This document shows, in pieces, positions 3,220 to 63,533 of a stretch of 64,000 nt of DNA (its first letter is position 1; the number at the start of each line of letters is the position of its first letter). Location of the stretch: positions 32,001 to 96,000 of the forward strand of contig CAWKNZ010000010.1 in the NCBI GenBank assembly GCA_963851265.1. Reading direction: 5' to 3'. Made by a program: the position numbers and the translations under genes. The notes under the pieces were generated by a model, which made no database searches, was not told where the DNA came from, and saw nothing but the letters and a program-made list of their open reading frames with translations. The DNA comes from an uncultured Gemmatimonadales bacterium (GTDB lineage Bacteria; Gemmatimonadota; Gemmatimonadetes; Gemmatimonadales; Gemmatimonadaceae).

Positions 3220-3244
3220 GGCGCGCCGCGGGCCGCGGCGCGCC
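3220..3244. terminator. GC hairpin between convergent genes (possible bidirectional terminator)
   Basis: GGCGCGCCGCG-GGC-CGCGGCGCGCC, 11-bp stem, no U-tract. Confidence 0.35.
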
Positions 3245-3270
3245 TAACGGCGAGGCGCGAGACGCGCCGG

Positions 3271-4686
3271 TCAGTCGCCGAGCGTCGCCGCGAGCGGCGC
3301 GATCCGCTCCGCCGCGAGCCGGCGCACGACGGGGTCGACGTCGTCACGAAGCGACCGGCTGAGCGCATGTCCGGCGGGCGCCCCCGAGTGCCAGAGGGAC
3401 GCGAGCGCCGCCGCGCGCAGCTCGTAGTCGTGCGCCCACCGAGTGCGCCCGGTGACGACCGCGTGCAGGTGGCGAACCGCGTCCGGCGACCCGATCCCGC
3501 CGAGGGCGTCGACGAGGTCGTGCGCCACCTCCGCGTCGGCTTCGGCCTCCAGTCGCGCGACGCACGTCGCGGCGGGCACGGCGACGCCGCGCCGGGCGCC
3601 CCGCGCGACCGCCCGCGCCGCGATTCGACGGACGTCGACGGAGCGGTCGAGTAGGGCCGGAACGAGCGCGCCCGCAGCAGCCGCGGAGTCGATCTGGTCG
3701 AGCGCGCGCGCGGCGGCATCACGCACGCGAGGCTCGGCGGCCATCAGGCAGCGCGCGAGTGGACGCACGGCCTCGTCCAGCCGAAGCTCGCCGAGCACGA
3801 GGGCCACGTTGCGGACCACGTACCACCGCGAGTCCCCGAGCGCCTGCAGCAATGTGTCGACGCCACCACCGACCTCGGCGAGCGCGTCGCAGCAGCGCTG
3901 GCGCTCTCCGATCGATTCCGCGGTCGCGAGCCGTTCGATGAGCAGCGGCACGGCGGCCGACGCGACACACTGCAGCACCGTGGTCGCCTCCGGCGCCGTG
4001 CCGTCGGCGACCGCGTCGACGACCGGGCGCAGGTCGGACCCGACGAGCAGGGCGATGAGTCCGTCGAAACGTCCCGCTGCATCGGGCGCGTCGTGTGCCA
4101 TCACGACCCCGACCGCGCGAGTGAGCACGCGCGCGATGTGCGTTCCCGCGCCCGGCGACGCCGACGCGCGCGTCGCATCGATCCAGGTGGTGAGCGTCTG
4201 GTACGCGCGCGCGACGTCGGCCTCGCCGTCCGACGACTCGAGCCGCGCCAGCGCCGAGTGCACGTCCGCGGTCACCGCGTCACCCGCATCGCCCGCGTCC
4301 GCCGCGTTTGCGACGAGTTGGACGTGCCACGATCGGAGCGCCTCGACTTCGGCCCGCACGTCACGCGCGTCCGGGCCGTCGTACAGCAGCCCGGCGCCGT
4401 GCGCGAGTTCGCGCGCAGGCGCCAGCTGGCGGATGATCAACCGCGCGATGCCGTGGGTGGCGAGCACGCGCGCGACCGCGTCCACCTCGGGCAGCCCCTC
4501 GACCGGCGCGCCGTCGACGGTGAGCCGGGTGCCGTCGACGTGCGCGACGACGCCGGTCCCGCGCGCAACCCGCGCCGCGTCGCGCAGCGCCGACCGCCGC
4601 TCCTCCTGCGACGCGTCGGGTGCGTGGAGCGCCGCGACCAGCCGCGAAAATGCCGCGAGCAGCCGAAGGCCGGCCGGAGGCGTCAC
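3271..4686 (-). CDS. HEAT-repeat protein
   Basis: Repeated LLQALGDSRWYVVRNVALVLGEL / AEPRVRDAAARALDQI / DRSVDVRRIAARAV / DVDPVVRRLA units. GTG start overlaps the GAF gene stop (GTGA). Confidence 0.75.
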   Translation of the reverse strand: MTPPAGLRLLAAFSRLVAALHAPDASQEERRSALRDAARVARGTGVVAHVDGTRLTVDGAPVEGLPEVDAVARVLATHGIARLIIRQLAPARELAHGAGLLYDGPDARDVRAEVEALRSWHVQLVANAADAGDAGDAVTADVHSALARLESSDGEADVARAYQTLTTWIDATRASASPGAGTHIARVLTRAVGVVMAHDAPDAAGRFDGLIALLVGSDLRPVVDAVADGTAPEATTVLQCVASAAVPLLIERLATAESIGERQRCCDALAEVGGGVDTLLQALGDSRWYVVRNVALVLGELRLDEAVRPLARCLMAAEPRVRDAAARALDQIDSAAAAGALVPALLDRSVDVRRIAARAVARGARRGVAVPAATCVARLEAEADAEVAHDLVDALGGIGSPDAVRHLHAVVTGRTRWAHDYELRAAALASLWHSGAPAGHALSRSLRDDVDPVVRRLAAERIAPLAATLGD

Positions 4687-5255
4687 GCGCGCCCGGCGGC
4701 CGCGTCGTCCACCGCCGCGTCCGCTCCGGCACGCGCTTCGAGGTGCCGCGCCAGGGCGTCGGCGAACGCGCGGAGCGCGGCGAGGTCGTCGTCGGTGAAC
4801 GTGCGCGGGTCGGGACCGATCACGCAGAGCGCGCCCACGCTCTGGCCGCGCGACGTGACGAGCGGCGCGCCGGCGTACGACCCGAGGCCGTCCCGGGCTA
4901 CGAGCGGGTTCGCGCACAGCGCCGGTTCGCGCGCGAGGTCGCCCACGGCGAACACTCCGGCGTGCGCCACCGGGTACCGGCAGAAGCTCCACTCGACGGG
5001 AACGCCGCCGGCGTCACGCATCCAACCCTCGAGCCCGTGCGAGCTGAGCACGCCGACCGCGTCGTCGTACACGACGTTCACGAGCGCCGTCGGCGCGTCG
5101 AGTCGTTGGGCCGCGGCGCGCACGGCCGCGCGGAGGATCTCGTCGTCGCTTGCCGTCGCGAGACCGAGGCGGGCCACTTCCGCGAGGCGTTCGGCGGCGT
5201 GGATCGCCGCGTCCTCGGGGGTCGGATCGACGGATGGCAGGGCGGCGGAGGTCAC
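4683..5255 (-). CDS. Stand-alone GAF domain protein
   Basis: ERLAEV..LGL, LDAPTALVNVV, SFC, SYAGAPLVTSRGQSVGALCVIGPDPRTFTDDDLAAL. Confidence 0.85.
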   Translation of the reverse strand: MTSAALPSVDPTPEDAAIHAAERLAEVARLGLATASDDEILRAAVRAAAQRLDAPTALVNVVYDDAVGVLSSHGLEGWMRDAGGVPVEWSFCRYPVAHAGVFAVGDLAREPALCANPLVARDGLGSYAGAPLVTSRGQSVGALCVIGPDPRTFTDDDLAALRAFADALARHLEARAGADAAVDDAAAGRA

Positions 5256-5608
5256 GCGGGGGGGGCTGTGGCGTCGGTGGCGTCAGCGGGCGCGCCGGAG
5301 GCGCGAAGCGCGAGGCAGGTGTACGCCCGGAGCCGGATGAGCATCGACCGGCCGACGATCCCGGTCATCCCCGTCCGCTGGATGAGGTGTTCCGCGATCC
5401 GTTCCAGGTCGGCGAGGGTGTGCGCGTGGGCGTACGCGCCGACGGCGCACGCGCGTAGGGCGGCGTCCCACGCCGCCTCGGCCGCGCTCGCGCCCAGTTG
5501 GCGTCGAAGCGCTACGTGGAAGTCGGTCTCTGACGGGGGCGCGAGCCCGTACACCGGGACGGCGGCAGGGGCGGACACGGGCGCACTCGCGGTCGGTGCG
5601 GCAGGCAT
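5252..5608 (-). CDS. Small alpha-helical hypothetical protein (118 aa)
   Basis: ATG at 5608, ordered helical sequence (YGLAPPSE...GRSMLIRLRAY). Stop overlaps the GAF start (GTGA). Confidence 0.65.
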   Translation of the reverse strand: MPAAPTASAPVSAPAAVPVYGLAPPSETDFHVALRRQLGASAAEAAWDAALRACAVGAYAHAHTLADLERIAEHLIQRTGMTGIVGRSMLIRLRAYTCLALRASGAPADATDATAPPA

Positions 5609-8221: not shown

Positions 8222-9006
8222 ACACACCGGAGGACGCGAGGCGCGACGACGGACGTGACGACGCGCGCGACCCGTGGCACGTGTTGGCCGCGCTCACGCC
8301 GGCGCGCGTCGCGCTCGGCCGGACGGGGAGCAGCGTGCCCACCGCGCGACACCTCGACCTGCAACTCGCCCACGCCCGCGCGCGCGACGCCGTGTGGCAT
8401 CCGCTCGACGCAGCCGGACTCGCGGCCGCGTTCGCCGCTGACGGGCACCGCGTCGTCCGCGTCCGCTCGGCGGCGCGCGACCGGCGCGAGTTCCTGCAGC
8501 GGCCCGATCTCGGCCGTCGACTCTCGGAGGACGCGCCGGGACCACTGGCCCGCGTGGCCGGCGACTGGGACCTCGCGTTCGTCGTCGCCGACGGTCTCGC
8601 GGCACTCGCCGCGGAGCGGCACGCGCCGGCGCTCGTCCGCGCGGTGTGCGACCGCCTGGCCGGCGGCGCGTGGCGGATCGGGCCGGTCGTCGTCGCGGAG
8701 CAGGCGCGCGTCGCGCTCGGCGACGCCGTCGGCGAGGCGCTCGGGGCGCGACTGGTCGTCGTGCTGTTAGGCGAGCGCCCGGGGATGAGCGCGCCGGACA
8801 GCCTCGGCGCGTATCTCACGTGGGCGCCGCGTCCGGGGCGGACGGACGCGGAGCGGAACTGCGTGTCGAACGTTAGGCCGGAGGGGCTGGCCGTCGGACC
8901 GGCGGCCGACACGATCGCGTGGCTCGCGCGGGCGGCGCGGCAGGGGCGGCTGAGTGGAGTCGGGTTGCGCGGGGTTGCCGGGTTGGCGCAGCGCGCGGGC
9001 CCGTGA
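8218..9006 (+). CDS. eutC: Ethanolamine ammonia-lyase small subunit
   Basis: TPARVALGRTG, HARARDAV, FLQRPDLGRRL, VADGL, GERPG, DAERNCVSN; GTGA overlap with eutB. Confidence 0.92.
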   Translation: MNTPEDARRDDGRDDARDPWHVLAALTPARVALGRTGSSVPTARHLDLQLAHARARDAVWHPLDAAGLAAAFAADGHRVVRVRSAARDRREFLQRPDLGRRLSEDAPGPLARVAGDWDLAFVVADGLAALAAERHAPALVRAVCDRLAGGAWRIGPVVVAEQARVALGDAVGEALGARLVVVLLGERPGMSAPDSLGAYLTWAPRPGRTDAERNCVSNVRPEGLAVGPAADTIAWLARAARQGRLSGVGLRGVAGLAQRAGP

Positions 9007-9029: not shown

Positions 9030-11357
9030 TCACCCACCCGGGTGATACACCCGCTCCGTATGCCCCACCAGCTGCGACGGGTAGAAATACACCTCGCGCA
9101 GATTCCCCGTCGTGTACCGCAGCGCCTGGTCTCCGAAGTGCGGCGACCGCGGATCCCCGCTCTCCCCGCCCGCGGTCACCGCGCGCGCCCGCACGCTGTC
9201 GCCGAACTCGACGACCGCGACAAAGCTGTTCCCGCTGGTGCCGTAGTACTTGCGCGTCCCCGGATACGCCCGCGCCCCGAACGACGCGAGCGACCCCCAC
9301 TGCGACGACGTGAACCCGACCGGGATGCTCGGGGCCGAGTCGCTGAACGGCTGCACGATGTCACCCGTTAGGCGCTGGTAACGGTTGATCTCGCCCCAGG
9401 GCGTCTGCCAGCGCCCGAAGCTCCGCTGCAGGCGGTCCGACGCGGCCGCAAGCGCTTCGAGCTTCACGCGCGGCGGCGTGCGCGAGGCCATGTAGTCGTA
9501 GACCGACATCCCGGCCGCGCGCGCGTCGGCCGCCGACCGCGCCCACAGCTCCTCGCCCCAGAAGACGGCGAGCGACGTCGGGACGCTCGCGACGCCCCAG
9601 CGGTAATCCCAGTGGCGGAGGGCCGCGACCTGCGGACCCACGCGGCGGCGCAGCGTGTCGGCGGCCGGCGTGCGGTCGTAGGCGGCGAGCAGCGTCGGGA
9701 CGAGTTGCGCGAAGGCAGTGAGGTACGGGTCGTACGCGGCCGCGATGAGCGACGCGGGCGTGAAGTCGTGGCGGTTGTCCAGGACGCGCCGCGCGTGCAG
9801 GCCGCGCGGGTTCTCGCCCACCTGGTCCATGTAGCGCGGGAAGTCGGCCCGCTTCGGGCTGTACGGGCCCGCCGCGGAGTACGGCCAGTTGTTCGTGTTC
9901 GCGATCCAGCCGTTGGCCGGGTCGAGCAGGTGCGGCACCTCGTCCACGCCGTGCACCCCGTGCCAGTCGGTCGCGGGATCGCTCCCGTCGACCGGGCGCG
10001 TGAAGTCGAACCGGTCGTCGCGCTTCGGGATGAACTGCGGGTGGTCGTACGCGATGTCGCCGTCGGCGTCGGCGAAGATCGTGTTGTTGGAGGAGTTCGC
10101 GTGCAACTCCATCACCTGCCGGAACGCGCGATAGTCGCGAGCCTTCGTGCGCAGGTACGACTGACTGAGCGCCTCGACGGGCCGCTGCATGAGCGCGACG
10201 CTTACCCAGCGGCCGCCCGCAGCGCGGACCACGGGGCCGTGGTGGGTGCGATAGACCGTGAACGTCCGCGACGCCAGCGCGCCGGTCGAGGTCCGGTAAG
10301 GGACGGCGATGGTCGACGTCACGATCGGCCGCTCCTCGCCGCCGTAGCGGTAATAGCGACGCCCCCCACGTTCGACCACCGTCTCCAGATACTCGTCCAC
10401 CGCGTCCACGCCGCTCGACGTGTGCATCCACCCCGCGCGCTCGTTGAACCCCTGGTAGACGAAGAACTGCCCCCAGGTGACCGCGCCGTACGCGTTCAGC
10501 CCCTCGCCGCTCGTCACCTGCACTTCGGCGCGGAAGAAGAAGGACGTGTGCGGGTTGATGAGGAGCAGCGCGCGGCCGCGCGCCGTGTTCGCCGGCGCGA
10601 TCGCGAACCCGTTCGACCCGGTCGGCTCGACGAACCGGAAGTCCGACGCGCGCGCTGCCCCGGCGCCGACTTCCGCATCGCCCGCGCGCGCCGGGCTGAC
10701 GCGCGCCGGAGTCGCCCCGGCCGGGGTGTCGCCGGTGCTCGCGGCCGGGCCGTAGAACGCGGCGAGATCGCCTAACGAGATCCGCTCCACGTCGCCGCCG
10801 ATGCTCCCCTCGCTGAACGCGAGTGGCATCCACGGCTCGAAGCGCGTGATGACGCGCGGCGTCACGCGCGGATGGGTGTGCAGGTAGTAGTTGAGTCCGT
10901 CGGCCCACGCGTCCATCAACCGCCGCAGCCACGCCGGACTCGCGGCGTACCGCGCACGGAGCGTGTCCGGGTCGGCGAACAGCTTCGCGCGCAGGTCGCG
11001 GTAGACGGCGCCCTCGCCCTCCGCCTCGGCCGTGCGCCCGAGGGCCGTCAGGTAGTTCGTCTCGACGCGGTTGAAATCGTCCTCGGCCTGCGCGTAGACG
11101 AGGCCGAACACCGCGTCCGCGTCGGTCGTGCCGCGCACGTGGGGGATGCCCCAGTCGTCCCGCGTGATCGTCACCGCCTCTGCCTCGCGCGACCACCGCG
11201 CGACGTCGGCGGCGCGCGCCGCGCCGGTCGTATCGGGGCGCCCCGGCGCGGCCGCGGCCGCGCGCGTCGCCCCGGACGACGCGCACGCCGCGGCGCTCCA
11301 GACGACGCCGCACCCGGCGATCGCTCGCCGGACGCGGATCGGTCGAATGCGGCGCAC
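9030..11357 (-). CDS. Penicillin acylase-family Ntn hydrolase, probable lipoprotein
   Basis: ITRDDWGIPHV, YAQAED, GSNGFAIAP (autocatalytic Ser nucleophile), LLINPH, SSNNTIFADADG; AAAC lipobox. Start approximate. Confidence 0.9.
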   Translation of the reverse strand: MRRIRPIRVRRAIAGCGVVWSAAACASSGATRAAAAAPGRPDTTGAARAADVARWSREAEAVTITRDDWGIPHVRGTTDADAVFGLVYAQAEDDFNRVETNYLTALGRTAEAEGEGAVYRDLRAKLFADPDTLRARYAASPAWLRRLMDAWADGLNYYLHTHPRVTPRVITRFEPWMPLAFSEGSIGGDVERISLGDLAAFYGPAASTGDTPAGATPARVSPARAGDAEVGAGAARASDFRFVEPTGSNGFAIAPANTARGRALLLINPHTSFFFRAEVQVTSGEGLNAYGAVTWGQFFVYQGFNERAGWMHTSSGVDAVDEYLETVVERGGRRYYRYGGEERPIVTSTIAVPYRTSTGALASRTFTVYRTHHGPVVRAAGGRWVSVALMQRPVEALSQSYLRTKARDYRAFRQVMELHANSSNNTIFADADGDIAYDHPQFIPKRDDRFDFTRPVDGSDPATDWHGVHGVDEVPHLLDPANGWIANTNNWPYSAAGPYSPKRADFPRYMDQVGENPRGLHARRVLDNRHDFTPASLIAAAYDPYLTAFAQLVPTLLAAYDRTPAADTLRRRVGPQVAALRHWDYRWGVASVPTSLAVFWGEELWARSAADARAAGMSVYDYMASRTPPRVKLEALAAASDRLQRSFGRWQTPWGEINRYQRLTGDIVQPFSDSAPSIPVGFTSSQWGSLASFGARAYPGTRKYYGTSGNSFVAVVEFGDSVRARAVTAGGESGDPRSPHFGDQALRYTTGNLREVYFYPSQLVGHTERVYHPGG

Positions 11358-12119: not shown

Positions 12120-13844
12120 ATGTCCTCGACGCCCCCGCCCCGCCTCGTCGCCCTGCCGGGGACTGAGCGCGACCCCGTCCCCGGCGCGCGCGCGATCGGG
12201 CCCACGCCACCCGACGAGTCGCTCCGCGTGAGCATCCACCTGCGCCCCCGCGCCGAGCTGCCCGACCCTGCACTGCTGGGCGCGGTCCCGGTCGACGCAC
12301 GTCCGGCACCGCTGACGCGGGAGCAGTTCGCCGAGCGCTACGGTGCGAGCGACGAGGACATCGCGGCCGTCCGCCAGTTTGCCGCGGCCGCAGGCCTCCA
12401 CGTCGTGGAGGAGCACGTGGCACGGCGTACCGTCGTCGTCGAGGGGACGGCGGCCGCCGTCGAGCGCGCCTTCGAGGTCCGCCTGAGCCGCTTCGCACAC
12501 CCCGACGGGAGCGAGTACCGCGGCCGGGTCGGCCCCGTGCACGTGCCGGAGTCGCTCGCGCATGCCGTCGACGGCGTGTTCGGGCTCGACACGCGGCGCA
12601 CGGCGCGGTCCAACGCGATCATTCGCCCGCTCCCGGTCGGAACGTCGCACGCGGCGGGCACCGCGCGGCCCTGGTTCACTCCGCCCGAGCTGGGCACCCT
12701 CTACGCGTTTCCGCCGGGCGACGGCGCCGGCCAGTGCATCGGGCTGCTCGAGTTCGGCGGCGGCTTCGACACCGGCGACCTGGCCACCTACTGGAGCGCG
12801 ATCCAGGTCGCCCCGGCGCCCTCCGTCGTCGCGGTCCCGGTGGGGACCTCGACCAACCAGCCGGGCAAGGACCCCGGCTCGGACGGGGAGGTCATGCTCG
12901 ACATCGAGGTCGCCGGCGCGCTCGCGCCCCGGGCCACGATCGCGGTGTACTTCTCGACGTTCACCCAGCAGGGTTGGGTCGACGCGCTGACCACCGCGGT
13001 GCACGACACCACGCACCGTCCGAGCGTGCTGTCCATCAGCTGGGGGTACGCCGAGGGGCACCTCACGTGGACCGCCGCGGCGACGAAGGCCGTCGACGAT
13101 ACGCTCAAGGCCGCGGCGCTGCTCGGCGTGACGGTGTGCGTCGCGTCGGGCGACGACGGGTCGAGCGACGACGTCGAGGACGGGCACGCCCACGTCGATT
13201 TCCCGGCGTCGAGCCCGTACGCGCTCGGGGTCGGCGGGACGGCGCTCGTGGCAGACGCGACGCGCACGCACATCACCGCGGAAACCGTGTGGAACGGCGG
13301 CCCGCGTGCGACGGCCAACGGGGCCGGCGGCGGCGGCGTGAGCAGCGTGTTTCCGCTCCCCGCGTTTCAGGCGCACGCCAACGTGCCCCGGTCGGTGAAC
13401 CCCGGGCACAAGGCCGGGCGCGGCGTCCCCGACGTGGCCGCGGTCGCCGACCCGCGTACGGGCTACTACGTGCGCTCGTCGGGGCAGGACGGGGTCGCCG
13501 GCGGGACGAGTGCATCGGCGCCGCTCTGGGCCGCGCTGCTCGCGCGCATCAACGCGGGCGGCACGCGCCCCGTGGGGTACATCACGCCGCTGCTCTACGC
13601 GTCGGCGGGCGCGGCGGGCTGCCGCGACATCACGCAGGGCAACAACGACACGACGGGGAAGATCGGCGGCTACCCCGCGGGCCGGGGGTGGGACGCGTGC
13701 ACGGGGTGGGGCAGCCCGAACGGGGCCACGCTCGGCGCCGCCCTCCGCGGTGGCGCGGGCGCCGCGCCGGCGGTGGCCGAGCGCGACGGCGCGCGGGCCG
13801 ACACGGGCGTCGTCGCCGGCGTCGGCGCCGGCGCGATCGCCTAA
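12120..13844 (+). CDS. S53 sedolisin/kumamolisin-family serine-carboxyl peptidase with prodomain
   Basis: EVMLDIE (E-x3-D), SISWG, ASGDDGS, RGVPDVA, GGTSASAP, WDACTGWGSP. Confidence 0.93.
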   Translation: MSSTPPPRLVALPGTERDPVPGARAIGPTPPDESLRVSIHLRPRAELPDPALLGAVPVDARPAPLTREQFAERYGASDEDIAAVRQFAAAAGLHVVEEHVARRTVVVEGTAAAVERAFEVRLSRFAHPDGSEYRGRVGPVHVPESLAHAVDGVFGLDTRRTARSNAIIRPLPVGTSHAAGTARPWFTPPELGTLYAFPPGDGAGQCIGLLEFGGGFDTGDLATYWSAIQVAPAPSVVAVPVGTSTNQPGKDPGSDGEVMLDIEVAGALAPRATIAVYFSTFTQQGWVDALTTAVHDTTHRPSVLSISWGYAEGHLTWTAAATKAVDDTLKAAALLGVTVCVASGDDGSSDDVEDGHAHVDFPASSPYALGVGGTALVADATRTHITAETVWNGGPRATANGAGGGGVSSVFPLPAFQAHANVPRSVNPGHKAGRGVPDVAAVADPRTGYYVRSSGQDGVAGGTSASAPLWAALLARINAGGTRPVGYITPLLYASAGAAGCRDITQGNNDTTGKIGGYPAGRGWDACTGWGSPNGATLGAALRGGAGAAPAVAERDGARADTGVVAGVGAGAIA

Positions 13845-13855
13845 CGTCGCCAACG

Positions 13856-13889: not shown

Positions 13890-14008
13890 GGCGCAGTCCG
13901 CCGACCAGTCGCGCGGCCCGCGGCGGCGCGGCACGCGCGGTGCCCCCGGCGGTCACGTCCTGCTACTCCGCCGCCTAACCGCGGCCTGCGACCCCGAACT
14001 TTCACGAG

Positions 14009-15931
14009 ATGGCCTGGAGCCTGACGCTCGGCGCCCGCCCGACGGCGGACGGCGTGTTGTTCCGCGTGTGGGCGCCCGAAGCCGCGCGCGTCGACGTCGT
14101 GTCGTCCGACACGCGGGCGCACGCGGGTGAGGACGCGCACGCCCTCACGCCCGACGGCGGGGGGTACTTCGCCGGACTCGTCCGCGGCATGCGGGCGGGC
14201 GCCCGGTACCGCTACCGCGTGGACGGCGGCGAGTCGTACCCGGACCCGGCGTCGCGCGCGCAGCCGGACGGCGTGCACGGCGCGTCGATGGTCGTCGACT
14301 CCGACGGGTTCGCGTGGACGGACGCGTCGTGGGCGGGCATCGAGCCCGACGACCTGATCGTGTACGAGGTGCACATCGGCACGTTCACGCCCGAAGGCAC
14401 CTTCGACGCCGCGATCGCGCGCCTCGACCACGTCGCCGCGCTCGGCGCGACCGCGGTCGAGGTCATGCCGATCGCCGCGTTCGCCGGCGCACGCAACTGG
14501 GGCTACGACGGCGTCGACCTCTACGCGCCGGCCGCGCCCTACGGCGGCCCCGACGGGTTCAAGCGCTTCGTCGACGCCGCGCACGCGCGCGGCCTCGCCG
14601 TACTCCTCGACGCGGTCTACAACCACTTCGGCCCTGACGGGAACTACCTCCACGCGCTCACCCGCGGCCGATTCTTCACCGACCGGCACCGTACGCCGTG
14701 GGGCGACGCGGTCGCCTACGACGGGCCCGACGGGGCCGCGGTGCGCGACTTCGTCGTCCAGAACGCGCTCTACTGGGCGCACGAGTACCACGTCGACGGG
14801 CTGCGCCTCGACGCGACCCACGCCATCCTCGACGACTCGCCCGTCCACGTCCTGACCGAGATCGCGGCGAAGCTTCACGACCTCGATCGTCCACGGATCG
14901 TGGTCGCCGAGGACGAGCGGAACGAGCGGCGTCTCGTGTTGCCGCCGCGCGAGGGCGGATTCGGGCTCGACGCCGTGTGGGCCGACGACCTTCACCACCA
15001 GGTGCGACGCCTGGCCGCTGGCGATTCGGAGGGGTACTTCGCGGCGTTCGGCGGCACGGTGGCCGACGTCGTCGCGACGCTCGAGCGCGGGTGGTTCTAC
15101 GAGGGGCAGGCGGTCGCCGGCGCGGGGCCCGACGCGCCCGCGACGCGCGGGACGCCGGCGGTCGGCCTGCCACCGCGGGCCTTCGTCCACTGCCTGCAGA
15201 ACCACGACCAGGTCGGCAACCGCCCCTTCGGCGACCGCCTGCACGACGCGATCCCGCTCTCGCTCTACCGCGCGCTCTCCGCGATGCTACTCGTGTCACC
15301 GTACACGCCGCTGTTGTGGATGGGGCAGGAGTGGGCCGCGTCGACGCCGTTTCAGTTCTTCACCGACCACACGCCCGAGTTGGGCGCACTCGTCACGGCC
15401 GGACGCCGCGCCGAATTCGCGGCGTTTTCCGCATTCCACGACCCTGCAGTGCGCGAGCGCATCCCCGATCCGCAGGACGAGGCGACGTTCCTGCGGTCCA
15501 AGTTGCAGTGGGACGAGCTCGCCGAAGCGCCGCACGCCGGCGTGCTCGCGCTCTACCGCGAGCTGCTGGCGTTGCGCCGCACCTCGCCCGCGCTCCGCGC
15601 GCGGGGGCGCGACGGGTTCGCCGTGGTGGCGTTAGGCGACTGCGCGCTCGCGCTCCGGCGCGAAGCGGCCGACGGCGACGCGCTGCTCGCCGTCGTGCAC
15701 TTCGGCGGGTCGCTACACCTCGACGTCGCCGGCACGTCGGTGACGCGCGCGCCGGCGGGCCGCCGGTGGGCGCGCGTCCTCTCGACCGAGGAGCGCCGAT
15801 TCGGCGGCTCGGGCGAGGGGGACGGGAACGACGGGGCGGCGCGGGAGCGCACGCCGGTCGACGTGCTGGATCTCGCCGCGCCGCAGGCCGTCGTGCTGTA
15901 CGCGCGTGCCGAGACGGCCCGGGCGTCGTGA
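14009..15931 (+). CDS. treZ: Malto-oligosyltrehalose trehalohydrolase (GH13)
   Basis: FRVWAP, YEVHIGTFT, RNWGYDGV, DAVYNHFGPDGNY, DGLRLDATHA, QNHDQVGNR, MGQEW. Confidence 0.93.
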   Translation: MAWSLTLGARPTADGVLFRVWAPEAARVDVVSSDTRAHAGEDAHALTPDGGGYFAGLVRGMRAGARYRYRVDGGESYPDPASRAQPDGVHGASMVVDSDGFAWTDASWAGIEPDDLIVYEVHIGTFTPEGTFDAAIARLDHVAALGATAVEVMPIAAFAGARNWGYDGVDLYAPAAPYGGPDGFKRFVDAAHARGLAVLLDAVYNHFGPDGNYLHALTRGRFFTDRHRTPWGDAVAYDGPDGAAVRDFVVQNALYWAHEYHVDGLRLDATHAILDDSPVHVLTEIAAKLHDLDRPRIVVAEDERNERRLVLPPREGGFGLDAVWADDLHHQVRRLAAGDSEGYFAAFGGTVADVVATLERGWFYEGQAVAGAGPDAPATRGTPAVGLPPRAFVHCLQNHDQVGNRPFGDRLHDAIPLSLYRALSAMLLVSPYTPLLWMGQEWAASTPFQFFTDHTPELGALVTAGRRAEFAAFSAFHDPAVRERIPDPQDEATFLRSKLQWDELAEAPHAGVLALYRELLALRRTSPALRARGRDGFAVVALGDCALALRREAADGDALLAVVHFGGSLHLDVAGTSVTRAPAGRRWARVLSTEERRFGGSGEGDGNDGAARERTPVDVLDLAAPQAVVLYARAETARAS

Positions 15932-21575: not shown

Positions 21576-21608
21576 GGGCGGGAGGCGGGTGGGGGTTCGT
21601 CGGGAACG

Positions 21609-29853: not shown

Positions 29854-29928
29854 GTACCCGTAGTCCAGTCCAGCTCCACAGCAGGCGAGCGTGCGCGGAT
29901 GTCCTCCGCGCACGCTTGGCGCGCCCGC

Positions 29929-31500: not shown

Positions 31501-31530
31501 ATTGCGTGACTCCTCCGTCATGCATAGCAT
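31501..31530 (+). promoter_or_regulatory. Candidate sigma-70-type promoter of EPS operon 1
   Basis: TTGCGT-N17-TAGCAT in the AT-richer intergenic region; similar element at 53803. Confidence 0.45.
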
Positions 31531-31804
31531 GTGCTTCGAGTTACCTGCCGTCTGATCAGTTCGCTTGCCCCGTGAGCGACTGATGTTTATAGCGACCGTG
31601 GCCTCTTCCCCGTCCACGGTCGCGGCTAGTGCCCTCACGTACCATCGTCGACCGGACGGCCCCCACCGTCCGGCCAGTTAGGCGCGGCCGCATGCGGCGG
31701 CCGCGCCCTGGTACGCCGTCATTCCTCGAGGGGCATGGTATGCCGTCCAGCTGGTGCCGCACCGCAACACGCATCGTCCGCGCGAGCGCCCGGACGGCAC
31801 GCCG

Positions 31805-35968: not shown

Positions 35969-35991
35969 GCACCTCCGCGCCGCCGCCCACC

Positions 35992-45917: not shown

Positions 45918-45938
45918 GAGCAGGGACCTGATGTGGTG

Positions 45939-46058
45939 TCGTTCGGCAACCCGGCCGGCCTGGCACACAGCGGAAGTGCGTGTGCGGTAGCCCCGTGGCT
46001 TTGCGGCCCCGGCTTTCGCCGGGTGTGCCTTTGTCGCGGCCTCATTAGGCCTAACGAT
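45939..46058 (-). ncRNA. c-di-GMP-I (GEMM-I) riboswitch, copy 1
   Basis: Minus strand GCGACAAAGGCACACCCGGC-GAAA-GCCGGGGCCGCAAAGCCACGGGGCTACC...GGCCGGCCGGGTTGCCGAA, about 20 nt upstream of the 45917 start. Confidence 0.85.
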
Positions 46059-46159
46059 CGAATGCCGTGCTGCGGCGCGGTCGGATCAACCGCACGGCCA
46101 GGACGCGCAATCCGACCCCGCGTCACGGCGCGTCGCGCGCGCGCGGTGTGGCTCGGCTG

Positions 46160-54048: not shown

Positions 54049-55431
54049 ATGTCGGACGGCAGCGCGCCGTCGATCGGCGTCGTGGGCGGCGGTGTTCTTG
54101 GTCTGACCCTCGCCCTCCGTCTCAGCCAACGCGGGTACCGCGTCACCGTGCTCGAGGGCGGGCCGGCGGTCGGCGGTCTCGCTGCGACGCAGACGCTCGA
54201 CGGCTGGCCGTGCGACCGCTTCTACCACGTCGTGCTCCCGGCCGACACCGCGCTCCACGCGCTGCTGGCGGAGCTCGGCATCGCCGACCGCCTGCGGTGG
54301 GAGACGACACGGACCGGCTTCTATACCGACGGCCGACTCCGCTCGATGTCGAGCGCGATCGACTTCCTGATGTTCCCGCCGCTCGGACCTGTCGACAAGC
54401 TGCGACTCGGGTATACGGTGCTCCACGCATCGCGCGTGCGCGATTGGCGGCGCCTCGAAGCGATTCCCGTGGCCGAGTGGCTCCGCCGCCTCTCCGGCCG
54501 TCGCACGTTCGAGCGGATCTGGCTTCCGCTCCTGCGCAGCAAGCTCGGCGAGAACTACCGCGAGACGAGCGCGACGTTCATCTGGGCGACCATCGCGCGG
54601 CTCTACGGCGCGCGGCAGGCCGGGGCGAAGCGCGAGCGCTTCGGATGGATCGACGGCGGCTACGCCGGCGTGCTCGCGCGGTTCGCTGAGCACCTGGAGG
54701 CGCGCGGCGTGACGTTGAGGTGTGGCGCCGCCGTCGCCGAGGTGCGCGACCGCGCACGTCCGGCGGCAGTTGACGGCGGTGGCGCGACTGGCGTCGACGT
54801 GCGGCTCGCGACCGGCGAGCGGATGTCGTTCGACGCCGTGGCGCTCACGGTCCCGACGGGGCGCATCGCCGCTCTCGCGCCGCAGCTCGGCGACGCCGAG
54901 CGGGCGCGCCTGCGAGGGGTGACGTACCAGGGCATCGTGTGCGTGACCGTGCTCCTGCGCCGACCGCCCGCGGGCGGCTACTACGTCACGAACATCACCG
55001 ATGACGGGCTGCCATTCACCGCCGTGATCGACATGACCGCGCTGGTTGACCCGGCGAGCGTCGGCGGTCACGCCCTCGTGTATCTGCCCCGGTACGCCGC
55101 GCAGGACGATCCGATTTGGTCGCGCTCGGACGACGAGGTCGTGCGCGACTTCCTCGCCGGCCTCGCCCGCGTGCACCCGCACCTGGGGCCCGACGACGTG
55201 CTCGACGTCCGCGTGTCGCGTGCGCGCGAGGTGCTCGCGCTCACGACGCTGCACTACTCGGAGCGGTGGCTGCCGCCGGTCGCGACGTCGCTGCCCCGCG
55301 TATTCGTCGTGACCTCGGCCCAGATCGCCGCTGGCACGCTCAACGTGAACGAGACGCTGCACGTGGCGGAGTCGGGTGCGGCGGCGATCGGCGCGAGGTT
55401 AGGCGCCGCACGGGCGGCAACTCCGTGGTAG
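54049..55431 (+). CDS. FAD-dependent oxidoreductase (amine oxidase/protoporphyrinogen oxidase-like)
   Basis: IGVVGGGVLGL, VLE...VGGLA, DRFYH. Confidence 0.85.
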   Translation: MSDGSAPSIGVVGGGVLGLTLALRLSQRGYRVTVLEGGPAVGGLAATQTLDGWPCDRFYHVVLPADTALHALLAELGIADRLRWETTRTGFYTDGRLRSMSSAIDFLMFPPLGPVDKLRLGYTVLHASRVRDWRRLEAIPVAEWLRRLSGRRTFERIWLPLLRSKLGENYRETSATFIWATIARLYGARQAGAKRERFGWIDGGYAGVLARFAEHLEARGVTLRCGAAVAEVRDRARPAAVDGGGATGVDVRLATGERMSFDAVALTVPTGRIAALAPQLGDAERARLRGVTYQGIVCVTVLLRRPPAGGYYVTNITDDGLPFTAVIDMTALVDPASVGGHALVYLPRYAAQDDPIWSRSDDEVVRDFLAGLARVHPHLGPDDVLDVRVSRAREVLALTTLHYSERWLPPVATSLPRVFVVTSAQIAAGTLNVNETLHVAESGAAAIGARLGAARAATPW

Positions 55432-59905: not shown

Positions 59906-61168
59906 ATGCCGTCCCACGTCCTCGACCACATCTCGCTCGGCAAGATCGTTCAGATCCGCGAGCGCCTGCTGAACGCCCAGGCCGCCGGGCGGACGGTGTA
60001 CCGCTTCGAGTCGGGCGACCCGAGCTTCGCCCCCGCGCCGCACGTCGTCGCCGCGATCGCCGACGCCGCCACGCGTGGACAGACGCACTACCCGCCCAAC
60101 AACGGCATCCCGGCGCTCCGCACGGCCGTCCGCCGCAAGCTCGCGCACGTGAACGGCATCGAGCTGGCCGACGAGGACGGCATCTTCGTCACCAACGGCT
60201 CCATGCACGGGCTGTTCGTCACCTTCTCGGCGCTGCTCGACCCCGCCGACGAGGTGATCCTCCCCGACCCGATGTGGACGGAGGTCGCGGAAAACGTGCG
60301 GCTCGCGGGCGGCGTGGCGGCGGGCGTTCCGCTCAGCGCCGGCGACGGGTACGTGTACGACCCCGACGCGATCACGCGCCGCATCACGCTGCGCACGAAG
60401 GCCATCTTCGTGAACACGCCGCACAATCCGACCGGCGCGGTCGCCGACCGCGAGCGGCTGCTCGCCATCCTGCGCCTCGCCGACGAGCGCGGCCTCTGGG
60501 TGGTGAGCGACGAGGCGTACGAAGACGTGATCTACCCGCCGCACGTGCACCACTCCCTGCTCGCGCTCGCGCAGCGCCACGTGCCGGGCGTGGCCGACCG
60601 CGTCGTCAGCCTGTGGTCGTTCTCCAAGAGCCACGCGATGAGCGGGCTGCGCGTCGGCTACACGGTGACGACCAACGCCGAGCTGCGCGACCGCTTCCCC
60701 AAGGTCCTGCGCTGCTCGATCAACGGCGTGAACAGCCTCGCGCAGTGGGGCGCCACTGCGGCCCTCGAGGGGCCGCGCGAGTACGTCGCGATGATGCGGG
60801 CCGAGTACGCCGAGCGGCGCGACGTGATGCTCGCCGCGTTAGGCGACGTCGAGGGCGTGCGCCCGTTCGTCCCGCGCGGCGGCTTCTATCTGTGGTGCGA
60901 GCTGGACCCGTCGCTCTACGGCCGCCTCGGCGTGCGCGACGCCGACGAGCTGTCCGCGCGCCTCGCCGAGGCCGGCGTGGGCAGCGCGCCGGGCGACGCG
61001 TTCGGGGAGCACTGCGCGCACGCGATCCGCTTCGCATACAGCTGCAGCACCGACATGGTTCGGGCCGGGGCGCCGGTGCTGCGCGCGCTGCTCACGGGCG
61101 AGCGGCCGCTCGCGGGTGCGATCGGCGGTGCGGGTGTCGCGGGTCGCGCGACGGTGCCGGTCGCGTGA
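59906..61168 (+). CDS. PLP-dependent aminotransferase class I/II
   Basis: NTPHNPTG, SDEAYE, SFSKSHAMSGLRVGY, GGFYLW, IRFAY. Confidence 0.92.
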   Translation: MPSHVLDHISLGKIVQIRERLLNAQAAGRTVYRFESGDPSFAPAPHVVAAIADAATRGQTHYPPNNGIPALRTAVRRKLAHVNGIELADEDGIFVTNGSMHGLFVTFSALLDPADEVILPDPMWTEVAENVRLAGGVAAGVPLSAGDGYVYDPDAITRRITLRTKAIFVNTPHNPTGAVADRERLLAILRLADERGLWVVSDEAYEDVIYPPHVHHSLLALAQRHVPGVADRVVSLWSFSKSHAMSGLRVGYTVTTNAELRDRFPKVLRCSINGVNSLAQWGATAALEGPREYVAMMRAEYAERRDVMLAALGDVEGVRPFVPRGGFYLWCELDPSLYGRLGVRDADELSARLAEAGVGSAPGDAFGEHCAHAIRFAYSCSTDMVRAGAPVLRALLTGERPLAGAIGGAGVAGRATVPVA

Positions 61169-62022: not shown

Positions 62023-62355
62023 CGGCCGTCGCGCGCGCGGACGTGCGCGTGATCGGACGCTCGCGTCGGCCTGAGTGCCCCCGGCGCGGGGGTTGGGCCG
62101 CCCCGCTTCCGGGCGGCTCACCCCCGAACACCAACGACCACGTGCAGACCGCCCTGTTTGGGTCGCCCGATCTCGGCGGCAGTTTCCCCCGCAGCGTGAC
62201 GGAACGATCGCGCACGCGCCCTATCGCGGAGCAGACGTGGTCGGGCTGACGCAGCCGAACGTCGAGTCGCGCGCGTGTACGGTGCGAGTCGTCGGCTCGC
62301 ACGGCTCGTCACGCGTCGTACTCGGGCTGCTACTCGGCGTCGCGGATGCGAGCTG

Positions 62356-62388
62356 ACCCCGCGCGCGCGGACCCCGCGCGCGCGGACC
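62356..62388 (+). repeat. 15-bp tandem duplication just before the wecB-2 start
   Basis: GACCCCGCGCGCGCG x2 followed by GAC. Confidence 0.6.
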
Positions 62389-62390
62389 GC

Positions 62391-63533
62391 ATGCGCGTGC
62401 TCGTGATCGCGGCCGCACGGCCCAACTTCATGAAGGTGGCGCCCATCCTCGCCGCGCTCACGCGCGCCGGGGACGAGGCAGTGCTCGTGCACACCGGGCA
62501 GCACTACGACGCCCGCATGTCGGACGCGTTCTTCGAGGACCTCGCGATTCCGGCGCCGGATCATCACCTCGGGGTGGGTTCGGGCACGCACGCCCAGCAG
62601 ACGGCGCGCGTGATGGAGGCGTTCGAGCCGGTGCTGCGCGCGGCGCGGCCGGACTGGCTCGTCGTCGTGGGCGACGTGAACGCGACGCTCGCGTGCGCGC
62701 TCGTCGCGGCCAAGTTGCGCCCCGAACTCGGCTGCCGCGTCGCGCACGTCGAGGCCGGGCTGCGCAGCGGCGACTGGCGGATGGCGGAAGAGGTGAACCG
62801 CGTCCTCACCGACCGCCTCGCCGACCTGCTGCTCACCCCGTCGCGCGACGCGCTCCCCAACCTCGTGCGCGAGGGGATCGCGGCGGAGCGCGTGGCGTTC
62901 GCTGGGAACGTGATGATCGACACGCTCTTCACGCACCTGCCGCGCGCGCGCGCGGTCGACCTGCCCGCGCGGCTCGGCCTCGCGCGCGGCGGCTACGTCG
63001 CGGCGACGCTCCACCGGCCGTCCAACGTCGACGACCCTAGCGCGTTAGGCATCCTGCTCGACGCGTTCGCGGCCGTGGCCGGCGAGCTGCCGGTGGTGTT
63101 CCCCGTGCACCCGCGCACGCGCAAGCAGGCGGAGGTGTTTGGCCTCACGCCGCGGCTCGAGCGGCTGCGCGTGCTCGAGCCGCTCGGCTACACCGAGATG
63201 CTCTCGCTCACCGAAGGCGCTGCCGTGGTGCTCACCGACTCGGGCGGGCTGCAGGAGGAGACGACGGCGCTCGGCGTGCCCTGCGTGACGCTGCGCGAGC
63301 AGACCGAGCGCCCGGTGACCGTGGCCGAGGGGACCAACCGGCTCGCGCCGTGGCCGCTCACGGTGGAGGGCGTGTTCGGCGCGTACCGCGCGGCGCGCGC
63401 CGCGCCGCGCGCGATCGCCGGCGCACGTCGCCCCGAAGGATGGGACGGGCACGCGGCCGAGCGGATCGTGGCGGCGCTGCGCGCGCACCTGCCCGCGCGG
63501 ACCGACGTCGGCGTCGCGGGCTCGGCGCGCTGA
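62391..63533 (+). CDS. wecB: UDP-N-acetylglucosamine 2-epimerase (non-hydrolysing), copy 2
   Basis: AARPNFMKVAP, HTGQHYD, VGDVNAT, HVEAGLRS, TLHRPSNVD, TDSGGLQEE. Confidence 0.92.
   Translation: MRVLVIAAARPNFMKVAPILAALTRAGDEAVLVHTGQHYDARMSDAFFEDLAIPAPDHHLGVGSGTHAQQTARVMEAFEPVLRAARPDWLVVVGDVNATLACALVAAKLRPELGCRVAHVEAGLRSGDWRMAEEVNRVLTDRLADLLLTPSRDALPNLVREGIAAERVAFAGNVMIDTLFTHLPRARAVDLPARLGLARGGYVAATLHRPSNVDDPSALGILLDAFAAVAGELPVVFPVHPRTRKQAEVFGLTPRLERLRVLEPLGYTEMLSLTEGAAVVLTDSGGLQEETTALGVPCVTLREQTERPVTVAEGTNRLAPWPLTVEGVFGAYRAARAAPRAIAGARRPEGWDGHAAERIVAALRAHLPARTDVGVAGSAR

Follow-up and report, generated by a model that had tools for sequence, protein, structure and literature searches.

The question raised by this locus is which process fills it with the heptamer GTTAGGC and its complement GCCTAAC. 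The window (the whole stretch analysed, 64,000 nucleotides) belongs to the genome of a soil-type bacterium of the Gemmatimonadota (12 contigs, 4,601,510 bp, 73% GC), referred to below as G000. The 14 GTTAGGC and 12 GCCTAAC coordinates given by the first-pass annotation were all recovered exactly and are collected in Table 1, together with the TCCTAAC variant, which is indeed a single mismatch. Dinucleotide shuffling of the window yields 2.43 copies on average (standard deviation 1.6, maximum 6), and none of 100 shuffles reaches the observed 26. The gene names proposed earlier agree with Pfam for EutC, penicillin amidase, alpha-amylase/CBM48, esterase, KDPG aldolase, altronate dehydratase, epimerase, Wzx-type, acyltransferase, aminotransferase and WecB-type epimerase, and the S53, uxaB and wza genes, said to take their stop codons from the word, all three end in it.

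Table 1. Copies of the word in the window, with their setting and reading frame (G001, G003 and G004 are other genomes of the comparison).
Position	Strand	Setting	Spelling	Gene name from	Other genomes
3242..3248	-	intergenic			
8766..8772	+	eutC, sense	CTG.TTA.GGC (Leu-Leu-Gly)	Pfam	
8872..8878	+	eutC, sense, rare frame	GTT.AGG.C (Val-Arg)		
9367..9373	+	penicillin-amidase gene, antisense	CGC.CTA.ACG (Arg-Leu-Thr)	Pfam	
10770..10776	-	penicillin-amidase gene (-)	TCG.TTA.GGC		kept in G003, not in G001
13839..13845	-	stop of S53/pro-kumamolisin gene 12120-13844 (+)	GCC.TAA.C	Pfam	
13973..13979	-	intergenic			
15631..15637	+	alpha-amylase/CBM48 (TreZ-like) gene	GCG.TTA.GGC		kept in G001
18310..18316	-	esterase gene (-)	ACG.TTA.GGC	Pfam	
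19478..19484	-	variant TCCTAAC, one letter off	GCG.TTA.GGA		perfect word in G001 orthologue
21126..21132	-	KDPG aldolase gene (-)	ACG.TTA.GGC		kept in G001 and G004
21608..21614	+	stop of UxaB-like (mannitol-dehydrogenase family) gene 21609-23180 (-)	GCC.TAA.C	Pfam	kept in G004
23909..23915	-	altronate dehydratase gene (-)	GTG.TTA.GGC		GCCCAAC in G003
30466..30472	-	intergenic			
31677..31683	+	intergenic			
32203..32209	-	sugar-transferase gene, antisense	GCG.CCT.AAC (Ala-Pro-Asn)	Pfam	
33525..33531	+	deacetylase/glycosyltransferase gene	CGG.TTA.GGC	Pfam	
34997..35003	-	deacetylase/glycosyltransferase gene, antisense	GGC.CTA.ACG (Gly-Leu-Thr)		
35964..35970	+	stop of Wza-like (Poly_export) gene 35285-35968 (+)	CGT.TAG.GC	Pfam	
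39047..39053	+	epimerase gene	CCG.TTA.GGC	Pfam	
41556..41562	+	Wzx-type flippase gene	GCG.TTA.GGC	Pfam	
46049..46055	-	intergenic			
48078..48084	+	acyltransferase gene	ACG.TTA.GGC	Pfam	
51493..51499	-	PMT_2 glycosyltransferase gene (-)	CTG.TTA.GGC	Pfam	
55398..55404	+	amine-oxidase-family gene	AGG.TTA.GGC	Pfam	
60838..60844	+	aminotransferase gene	GCG.TTA.GGC	Pfam	
63044..63050	+	UDP-GlcNAc 2-epimerase (WecB-type) gene	GCG.TTA.GGC	Pfam	

The whole genome contains 1762 copies, about one per 2.6 kb, against 160, 96 and 127 expected under Markov models of order 1, 2 and 3. GTTAGGC ranks first of all 7-mers under each of these orders, and masking the copies in the background lowers the expectation to 19-64. 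Markov and codon-aware controls do not reproduce the count, and each of the 21 one-letter variants occurs at 0.2-2.9 times its expectation. Since 1762 copies stand against 19-160 expected while all one-letter variants stay within that range, an exact reader is indicated rather than an effect of composition. The flanks are constrained as well, position -1 being C or T in 93% and position +1 other than T in 95% of the copies (the same preference is seen in coding copies and in 268 intergenic ones), and the extended consensus is YGTTAGGCV. The longer form CGTTAGGC, at first attributed to most copies, is found in 1396 of the 1762. No published description of the GTTAGGC genome word was found in the literature searched.

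Gene frames were taken from our own simple gene caller, an uncurated annotation (3741 genes, 89% coding). In the codon-aware count of G000 the word occupies 993 of the 10,902 xxG-Leu-Gly sites in the sense frame (9.1%) and 201 of the 1467 xxG-Pro-Asn sites in the antisense frame (13.7%), as well as 25 of the 3514 Val-Arg-[LPHQR] sites. The CTA-ACG spelling pointed out earlier is present, but the commonest antisense spelling genome-wide is G.CCT.AAC; GC.CTA.AC is found at only 75 of the 1908 [SGRC]-Leu-Thr sites. Of the 1307 in-frame TTA codons, 76% lie inside G.TTA.GGC, a spelling at odds with the usual codon choice of the genome. The word also forms 206 stop codons (123 of 438 TAA and 83 of 749 TAG), and 278 copies are intergenic. 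Its orientation, described at first as balanced, is so overall, but locally it is that of the gene, and in G000 it is accounted for by gene strand alone. Occupancy is equal in majority-strand (127 of 1492, 8.5%) and minority-strand genes (20 of 242, 8.3%), which bears out the contrast drawn earlier with polarised Chi and KOPS, and in G012 the sense bias is absent (52 of 98 copies). The word is a DNA-level, strand-symmetric signal that uses the strands in proportion to the sites permitted by the proteins. A signal in RNA or protein is argued against by the filling of both strands where synonymous spelling allows, by the stop-codon and intergenic copies, and by their common flanks.

Compared with a codon-aware simulation, the copies avoid one another at distances under 300 bp and are spaced over-evenly at 0.75-3 kb: gaps shorter than 200 bp number 46 (137 ± 10 simulated) and gaps of 750-1000 bp number 164 (115 simulated), while gaps of 4-12 kb reach ~0.8 of expectation. 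The short-range depletion is observed in all four orientation pairs. We know of no documentation of a sharp 300-bp exclusion zone as a property of DUS or USS. Only three close inverted pairs, potential terminators, lie within 7-23 bp, and the rarity of such pairs counts against an uptake reading. The word is denser in native-looking DNA, with site occupancy rising from 4.6% in the lowest quintile of gene codon typicality to 12.0% in the highest, and density climbing with local GC, by quintile, from 0.27 to 0.49 per kb. Spacers between convergent genes have 1.26 copies per kb, those between divergent genes 0.36. In genus g1 the parAB/mnmG region is poor in copies (none in 45 kb of G000, and between 1 and 3 over 20-35 kb around parB of G001 and G004), a gap not present near parB of G012.

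In relatives, the G000 sites are identical in 12 of 19 cases (G004), 7 of 14 (G001) and 6 of 12 (G012), against fractions of 0.29-0.33 of the control 7-column windows within the genus and 0.10-0.14 in G012. Thus, with G000 as the reference, the orthologue check suggested in the first pass finds that word sites outlast control 7-mers between species. In the reverse direction, G000 retains 12 of 39 sites of G004 and 7 of 23 of G001, a share no higher than for control windows, so G000 may be losing copies. Gains are best seen in rpoB, where three genomes of one genus (G060, G160 and G192) have 7-8 copies each and their congener G118 has none (92% amino-acid and 85.6% nucleotide identity over the 728 codons available). 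Because the motif-poor G118 keeps CTC.GGN, the spelling also found in the other genomes at most of these positions, the rpoB copies are derived; the gains took 2-3 synonymous changes apiece, some with an amino-acid change (Phe to Leu, and in G012 Asp to Asn). Motif-rich genomes number 53 of the 201 in the family, and motif-rich genera 20 of its 77; they carry 0.1-1.3 eight-mer copies per kb, strand-balanced in every case. The density contrast among congeners exceeds 50-fold (G118 against G060, G160 and G192), and the word switches on and off inside genera g21 and g54. Motif-poor relatives, sampled at 20-60 kb per genome, showed no replacement word ("dialect"). This uneven spread, the short-range repulsion of copies and the integron core-site identity described below go beyond the first-pass annotation.

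The reading that we tentatively prefer, and would call possible rather than probable, is that YGTTAGGCV may be a self-DNA recognition word, similar to an uptake sequence and kept by transfer-biased drive. The earlier proposal of a genome-wide selected or drive-maintained signal of the HIP1 or uptake kind gains support from the excess over Markov and codon-aware expectations, the strand use, the conservation and the multi-base gains; among the mechanisms then named, uptake and protein binding are both candidates. The double-stranded word would mark the DNA of the lineage itself. Most likely, fragments bearing it would be preferentially taken up in natural transformation and then enter by homologous recombination, on the model of the Pasteurellaceae USS and the Neisseriaceae DUS. 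Mutations creating the word at tolerated places (synonymous sites, stop codons, 3' spacers and, at times, where an amino acid changes mildly) would be passed on more often, and long-resident DNA would fill on both strands until about one copy stands per 1-3 kb. On this reading the uptake machinery would be the reader, and transformation would take place in these bacteria; no uptake or transformation experiment on them was found in the literature searched. G000 encodes ComEC, DprA, two secretins, ComEA-type HHH_3 proteins and PilM. As all five genomes examined have ComEC, DprA, secretin and HHH_3, PilM occurs in 184 of 201, and the motif-poor relatives are equally equipped, these genes permit the uptake reading without supporting it. 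The Neisseria-type ComP receptor has no match in G000 and exceeds the cut-off in 4 of the 201 genomes, three of them motif-poor. Also counting against the uptake reading are the dialect-free samples of motif-poor relatives, the 300-bp exclusion zone and the control-level retention of G004 and G001 sites in G000.

By its letters, flanks included, the word is identical with the integron attC/attI core box: GTTAGGC fits R' (GTTRRRY) and GCCTAAC fits R'' (RYYYAAC), the consensuses being those in the available extracts of PMC12901181. This identity is not predicted by the uptake reading. Two independent 7-mers would match exactly by chance about once in 8000, the family is integron-rich (IntI over the cut-off in 115 of 201 genomes), and the few copies that motif-poor relatives contain belong to cassette arrays as attC boxes (30 attC-like pairs within 36 kb), with flanks that agree with those of the genome word (-1 C or T in 57 of 60, +1 not T in 58 of 60). 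A tie to integrons, in which the copies would be chromosome-wide R boxes for IntI or a relative, serving as attG-like cassette landing pads, or in which the transfer or uptake reader would be tuned to cassette DNA, is nevertheless unlikely. The presence of IntI is not linked to the word: 33 of 53 rich and 72 of 135 poor genomes have it (Fisher p = 0.33). The IntI match is split in G000, partial with a stop in G001 and spread over three frames in G012, and none was found in G002 or G008. Only 8 attC-like pairs, 16 of the 1762 copies, occur in G000, in-frame synonymous copies cannot be written by cassette insertion, and sites cut by a recombinase would be expected to disappear by gene conversion, not to increase. 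Not very likely either is a role as high-copy binding site for some abundant protein of the chromosome (in nucleoid organisation, condensin-type loading, or scanning for replication or repair), kept by ordinary selection because one site is needed per 1-3 kb. The even spacing with its ~300-bp exclusion zone is what a bound footprint or redundant sites would give, and the indifference to orientation, the scarcity in promoter-side relative to 3' spacers and the copy-poor parAB/mnmG region of genus g1 also suit it. Selection alone, however, would hardly fix thousands of weakly selected sites, yet rpoB gained at least five within one genus; the congener contrast comes without sign of lost function, G012 lacks the gap, and no candidate word-binding protein was found.

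All drive-type evidence for the uptake reading would fit equally if the word were a signal for packaging or transfer by some other means of DNA exchange (particles like gene-transfer agents, conjugative elements or vesicles), with the same kind of drive but no transformation, and the patchiness at genus and species level, as in g21 and g54, resembles the coming and going of an accessory and possibly mobile determinant; this is quite improbable, and known gene-transfer agents are, to our knowledge, indifferent to sequence when they package DNA. An origin of the word as a side effect of methylation, restriction or biased repair of the HIP1 or Dcm-Vsr type, in which a methylase would mark the word and very-short-patch-like repair would turn near-matches into it, is very improbable and already weakened. 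GCCTAAC has what we take to be the shape of MmeI-family sites, and in G000 an Eco57I/MmeI_Mtase protein of 1141 aa adjoins an SNF2 helicase; cyanobacterial HIP1, read by two methylases, is a precedent (available extracts of PMC13756078). That protein, however, is found in rich and poor genomes alike, equally diverged (~50% identity over the whole length). The methylation and repair branch of the first-pass annotation finds no support in other respects either: no methylase was found that goes with the word in its distribution, the C5 methylase PF00145 occurs in none of five genomes, PF01555 and PF02086 have no match in G000, and PF02384 gives there frame-broken pieces at contig ends and a weak match within the Eco57I-type protein. 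Vsr was not found in G000, genus g1 (0 of 4) or g9 (0 of 5); elsewhere it turns up in scattered genomes, 34 of the 201. None of the one-letter neighbours shows the depletion expected of a conversion source, and the mutual exclusion of copies is not predicted by site-by-site repair. Scarcely credible is a polar Chi- or KOPS-type recombination or segregation signal, or a bldA-like translational device built on rare TTA. The word has Chi-like size and density (non-palindromic, 7-8 bp), and TTA is found in 1060 of 3741 genes with a single tRNA-Leu(UAA) gene in G000; the codon-aware frame occupancy, with antisense frames filled as much as sense, the equal strand-class occupancy with gene strand alone explaining orientation, and the G012 orientation contradict both, and TTA decoding cannot involve intergenic or stop-codon copies.

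Among known systems, Chi and KOPS are likewise short, asymmetric, over-represented words read on DNA, but they are co-oriented with replication and GTTAGGC is not. With integron core sites (attC R' and R'', attI R box) the word has in common its letters and extended consensus. In integron cassettes the TAA inside GCCTAAC ends the cassette genes, and in G000 it also ends ordinary genes. Whereas attC sites form arrays of R''/R' pairs that lie 50-160 bp apart and enclose L boxes, more than 99% of the G000 copies stand alone, dispersed and for the most part in frame within housekeeping genes, without a link to IntI. Cyanobacterial HIP1 (GCGATCGC) is, in the available extracts of PMC13756078, equally hyper-abundant, conserved and quasi-periodically spaced, correlated with pilus genes and now proposed as an uptake watermark. 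It is a palindrome read by two methylases, whereas GTTAGGC is asymmetric and a cognate methylase was not found; a similar pilus-gene correlation is impossible here, as PilM is near-universal. DUS of Neisseriaceae, according to extracts of PMC3868556, PMC2397512 and PMC3630211, also form a genome-wide "watermark" common to related genera, one that is depleted where the DNA is atypical and enriched on the downstream side of genes. They differ in that G000 has no ComP_DUS-type pilin, inverted terminator pairs are rare here and most copies are intragenic, and in that every genus of Neisseriaceae has a dialect, while the present word is carried by only 20 of 77 genera, with no dialects seen. From USS of Pasteurellaceae the word differs in phylum and letters, in being known from sequence alone, in having one informative base on each side instead of AT-rich flanking segments, and in word-less relatives that show no replacement word. 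It shares with them a short non-palindromic core in both orientations at ~0.4-1.3 per kb, spacing more even than random, and a mostly intragenic position in frames and peptides that tolerate it, with some amino-acid changes forced. Such co-evolution of USS with proteomes is described in the available extracts of PMC2817400.

Every one of the 26 copies of GTTAGGC/GCCTAAC that the first-pass annotation had listed in the window (C10:32001-96000) is present at its coordinate, whereas dinucleotide-preserving shuffles give 2.43 ± 1.6 copies, with a maximum of 6 in 100 shuffles. The source genome, G000 (4.60 Mb in 12 contigs, 73% G+C), contains 1762 copies, 885 and 877 on the two strands, so the balanced orientation noted for the window holds for the whole assembly. 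Markov models of order 1, 2 and 3 predict 160, 96 and 127 copies, respectively, with GTTAGGC as the first-ranked 7-mer each time, and the expectation falls to 19–64 when the copies are masked out of the background; the suspected excess is thus borne out. The 21 one-letter variants occur at only 0.2–2.9 times their own expectation. The maximal-order Markov ranking does not flag GTTAGGC because its sub-words absorb the signal; models of lower order, and a background with the copies masked, serve as the proper controls.

Of the bases preceding the heptamer, 79% are C and 14% are T, and only 5% of those following it are T (n = 1761 copies in G000). The identical flank preference is seen in the 268 copies lying wholly between genes and is therefore not a codon effect; judged from these flanks, the recognised unit is about YGTTAGGCV. 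No longer conserved flank was found around the G000 copies, so the word is neither a mobile element nor a REP-type repeat.

The placement of the copies in genes (see the table) is given in frames from a custom caller based on codon log-odds (3741 genes, 89% coding), not from a curated annotation. At least one copy is carried by 1200 of the 3741 genes. Inside GTTAGGC lie 993 of the 1307 in-frame TTA codons (76%), in agreement with the earlier view that the word enters genes through codons otherwise very rare, and G000 has a single tRNA-Leu(UAA) gene. Since occupancy was measured per compatible site, the sense-strand bias can be seen to mirror the frequency of suitable peptides; the signal works at the DNA level, on either strand. 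At gene ends, GCC-TAA-C supplies 123 of the 438 TAA stops (and is used by 123 of the 865 genes ending in Ala), and NGT-TAG-GC supplies 83 of the 749 TAG stops. In the window the copies divide into 14 Leu-Gly, 1 Val-Arg, 2 Leu-Thr, 1 Pro-Asn, 5 intergenic and 3 stop-codon placements, the last as first described, and the genes that host them are unremarkable ones of metabolism and exopolysaccharide synthesis.

Placement, occupancy and spacing of the word in G000, and coordinates of associated loci (window positions or contig positions; L numbers are loci)
Feature	Location	Observation
Sense G-TTA-GGC	G000	993 copies
Antisense G-CCT-AAC	G000	201 copies
Antisense GC-CTA-AC	G000	75 copies
Sense GTT-AGG-C	G000	25 copies
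Spanning a gene end	G000	190 copies
Intergenic	G000	278 copies
Compatible xxG-Leu-Gly		9.1% occupied; 14–21% with preceding Ala, Thr, Ser or Pro
Compatible xxG-Pro-Asn		13.7% occupied
Compatible [SGRC]-Leu-Thr		3.9% occupied
Compatible Val-Arg-[LPHQR]		0.7% occupied; two rare codons needed
Neighbour gaps <200 bp		46 observed, 137 ± 10 simulated
Neighbour gaps <500 bp		193 observed, 316 ± 14 simulated
Neighbour gaps 300–750 bp		as expected
Neighbour gaps 750–1000 bp		164 observed, 115 simulated (ratio 1.43)
Neighbour gaps 1–3 kb		ratio 1.1–1.2
Neighbour gaps 4–12 kb		ratio ~0.8
Long exopolysaccharide cluster	window 31805-63533	sugar transferase, Wza-like exporter, epimerases, Wzx-type flippase, acyltransferase, aminotransferase, UDP-GlcNAc 2-epimerase; word at usual density
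Zero or tiny gene called	window 29853-31805 and 44427-46160	lower-GC part (0.70–0.72)
Largest word-free stretch in G000	C1:182876-227962 (L132-L134)	45,086 bp, G+C normal at 73.8%, 37 genes; holds mnmG, parA, parB and mnmE, an origin-proximal gene set
Methylase-helicase operon	L108:7718-13512 (C7:579717-585511)	1141-aa Eco57I/MmeI_Mtase-type methylase and 759-aa SNF2/ResIII helicase
N6_Mtase (type I HsdM-like) matches	C7:771474-772495 and C9:923-1858	broken over several frames at contig ends
AGGGATAG	G005 (a relative), L088-L090	9 copies in 57 kb, 0.5 expected
Long chromosomal integron cassette arrays, motif-poor relatives of the same order	L001 (G015:C95:1-20000), L002 (G013:C3:1-9000), L003 (G015:C80:1-7000)	R''...R' pairs of attC present; attC sites very uniform
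G000 integron-remnant loci on C6	C6:3005-6044 and C6:1592-1708	outside the window; the IntI match on C6 is split in two pieces ~2 kb apart
Further G000 integron-remnant loci	C10:188936-203792; C9:56165-56285; C11:4066-4221; C6:34252-34324	all outside the window; several attC-like pairs far from intI, those on C10 ~93 kb past the window end

The spacing of the copies was compared with a null of 300 simulations, each placing the same number of copies per class on randomly chosen compatible sites. Gaps below 300 bp reach 0.2–0.56 of the simulated number, and this short-range depletion is found in all four orientation pairs, so that its cause is not two nearby rare TTA codons. Such spacing fits a function or drive for which a single copy in each DNA stretch suffices; it does not fit independent mutation or repair acting site by site. 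When genes are ranked by how typical their codons are, occupancy climbs from 4.6% in the lowest fifth to 12.0% in the highest. Across quintiles of local GC the density goes up from 0.27 to 0.49 per kb, and spacers carry 1.26 (convergent), 0.54 (tandem) and 0.36 (divergent) copies per kb. The word is thus more frequent in long-resident DNA, despite the cost of rare codons. An origin exclusion zone was considered and rejected, the surroundings of parB being dense throughout in the relative G012 and just thinned in the congeners G001 and G004.

Conservation in orthologues agrees with the maintained signal that the first-pass annotation had proposed. Orthologous blocks show ~80% identity within the genus and ~71% to the relatives G012 and G008. 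Copies of G000 are letter-perfect in G004 in 12 of 19 cases, in G001 in 7 of 14, in G012 in 6 of 12 and in G008 in 0 of 4, with control 7-column windows at 0.29–0.33 within the genus and 0.10–0.14 for G012 and G008. For G012, which is very dense, convergent gain at the same permissive sites can account for some of the agreement. In the reverse direction, 12 of 39 G004 copies and 7 of 23 G001 copies are kept in G000, which is the control level only; the density of G000 is the lowest in the genus, and copy loss may be under way there.

Gain is plainest in rpoB: the genes of G060, G160 and G192 (genus g54) hold 7–8 copies in 3.7 kb, and that of their congener G118 holds none (92% amino-acid and 85.6% nucleotide identity, over the 728 codons available). 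At those codons G118 has CTC.GGC, CTC.GGA or CTC.GAT, likewise the other compared genomes at most sites, so the rpoB copies are derived. Each gain comprises 2–3 synonymous changes, all converging on one word, and some gains come with an amino-acid change: Leu replaces Phe at column 204 and, in G012, Asn replaces Asp at column 1186.

The closest named hits of a protein from the window are MAGs of Longimicrobiales and Gemmatimonadaceae, which places the organism in Gemmatimonadota. Among 21 close relatives, a one-base extension of the word (the 8-mer) occurs in 727–2415 copies in all five genomes of the genus, in 605 in G008 and 6360 in G012, and in 6–65 in the remainder. The wider survey took in 201 Gemmatimonadaceae genomes representing 77 genera (including the unpublished G011, G045, G046 and G144), and a genome with at least 0.1 8-mer copies per kb and at least 3 times the reversed-word control was classed as rich. 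It comprises 53 rich, 13 intermediate and 135 poor genomes, with a rich member in 20 of the 77 genera. This is a real, strong and family-wide DNA word. Genera g21 and g54 mix rich and poor members: copies differ ~50-fold between G118 and G060, G160 and G192 (g54), and 5- to 11-fold between G027 and G097, G145 and G182 (g21). No replacement word was found in 7 motif-poor genomes, in small samples of 20–60 kb each (that of G011 from an unpublished genome), where the top words are ordinary codon pairs. In gene-presence profiles none of IntI, ComP_DUS, PilM and Vsr tracks the word. In the RpoB tree G012 adjoins genus g1, that of G000, with weak support (SH-aLRT 81; G009, G014, G016, G018 and G020 disregarded for a wrong long reading frame, G002 and G008 absent); the methylase tree groups G000 with G012 (86/89) and leaves G008 unplaced.

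Several explanations of the word were weighed. An origin of the word in methylation or repair is highly improbable. No C5 methylase (PF00145) was found in 5 genomes including G000, and PF01555 and PF02086 give no match in G000; PF02384 gives frame-broken pieces at contig ends and a weak match inside the Eco57I-type protein. The one intact Eco57I/MmeI-type methylase also occurs in motif-poor genomes and is equally diverged from them, and in an end-to-end comparison of the enzyme from 3 rich and 2 poor genomes no segment is conserved in the rich ones alone. The gene for the 1141-aa methylase is conserved in all 5 genomes checked (the helicase neighbour was checked in G000), and the broken N6_Mtase matches represent pseudogenes, or else a repeat that was misassembled. 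As no cognate methylase tracks the word, a HIP1-type, methylase-linked word was rejected. G000, g1 and g9 yielded no Vsr, and no one-letter neighbour of the word is scarcer than a general avoidance of CTAG-type words would make it, which leaves no source word for a product of Dcm/Vsr very-short-patch repair. Polar or translational signals are barely credible. A Chi-like polarity was suggested by 23 consecutive + copies in G004:C1, a run that may just reflect forward matches being listed first, and was rejected, because copy orientation along contigs tracks the local gene strand. Regions having at least 75% of coding length on one strand served as a leading-strand proxy; there, 127/1492 Leu-Gly sites (8.5%) are occupied in majority-strand and 20/242 (8.3%) in minority-strand genes, and G012 lacks a sense bias (52/98); like the first-pass annotation, we see no Chi- or KOPS-like polarity.

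An integron-linked function is distinctly unlikely, and yet the word has the letters of an integron recombination site, which is unexpected and calls for explanation. In motif-poor relatives the few copies sit in arrays with a period of 550–600 bp, which are integron cassette arrays, where GCCTAAC is the R'' and GTTAGGC the R' box (core sites) of each attC; PMC12901181 gives the attC consensus as RYYYAAC for R'' and GTTRRRY for R'. In 60 such attC boxes the -1 base is C or T in 57 and the +1 base is not T in 58, in agreement with the genome-wide word. If attC-like sites are taken as inverted R''...R' pairs separated by 50–160 bp, with L boxes and forming arrays close to intI or elsewhere, G000 has only 8 pairs (16 of 1762 copies), none of them inside the window, and the genome-wide word as a set of attC sites was rejected on that count. 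The family is integron-rich (IntI over the cut-off in 115 of 201 genomes), and IntI is unrelated to richness (33 of 53 rich, 72 of 135 poor; p = 0.33). It is a proposition, likewise distinctly unlikely and drawn from the shared letters, that the identity of word and core box is no coincidence and that the reader of the drive would recognise the integron R box YGTTAGGCV, favouring cassette-bearing import. Transformation or another import route would then favour DNA with gene cassettes, and the solitary R boxes along the chromosome would be a by-product that could offer thousands of ready landing sites for cassettes. If true, the specificity of DNA uptake would be coupled to the integron system, a coupling not described for any organism in the literature searched. 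A chromosomal binding site is unlikely, and a route of transfer other than DNA uptake is very unlikely.

Transfer-biased drive through DNA uptake, which would keep the word in these genomes, is our tentative choice, quite possibly correct. Competence genes are present in G000 (ComEC, DprA, secretins, HHH_3 proteins of the ComEA type, and PilM) and equally so in motif-poor relatives, hence they do not discriminate. In Neisseria a ComP-type minor pilin is the sequence-specific receptor; the ComP_DUS-type pilin (PF16732) has no match in G000 and exceeds the cut-off in 4 of 201 genomes, 3 of them motif-poor. We know of no receptor for the uptake sequence (USS) of Pasteurellaceae either. Literature searches found nothing on competence in Gemmatimonadaceae and nothing on GTTAGGC as a genomic feature (text matches were only integron sites and a primer), and work on Gemmatimonadota or Gemmatirosa with uptake sequences, methylome or competence yielded nothing on GTTAGGC.

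To our knowledge, hyper-abundant self-DNA words with a proven function come from just two proteobacterial families, with HIP1 of cyanobacteria now a third candidate. The word described here is a clear and strong case from Gemmatimonadota, a phylum widespread in soil for which hardly any genetics exists, and gives a directly testable hypothesis on natural transformation there. Comparison of the natural on/off contrasts within genera (G118 against G060, G160 and G192; G027 against G182) should lead to the gene whose product reads the word, and rpoB makes measurable a DNA-level drive that overrides codon choice and even protein sequence. The word can serve as a binning marker and a flag for foreign DNA, and could help to make these bacteria transformable. 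In respect to known systems, it resembles the uptake sequences of Neisseriaceae (DUS) and Pasteurellaceae (USS) in an exact short form far above compositional and codon-aware expectation, in its occurrence in both orientations with no replication polarity (by the gene-strand proxy), in a spacing more even than random, and in coding-frame behaviour, in its scarcity in atypical DNA and in its effect on proteins. Of the known systems, the word is most like the uptake sequences of these two families.
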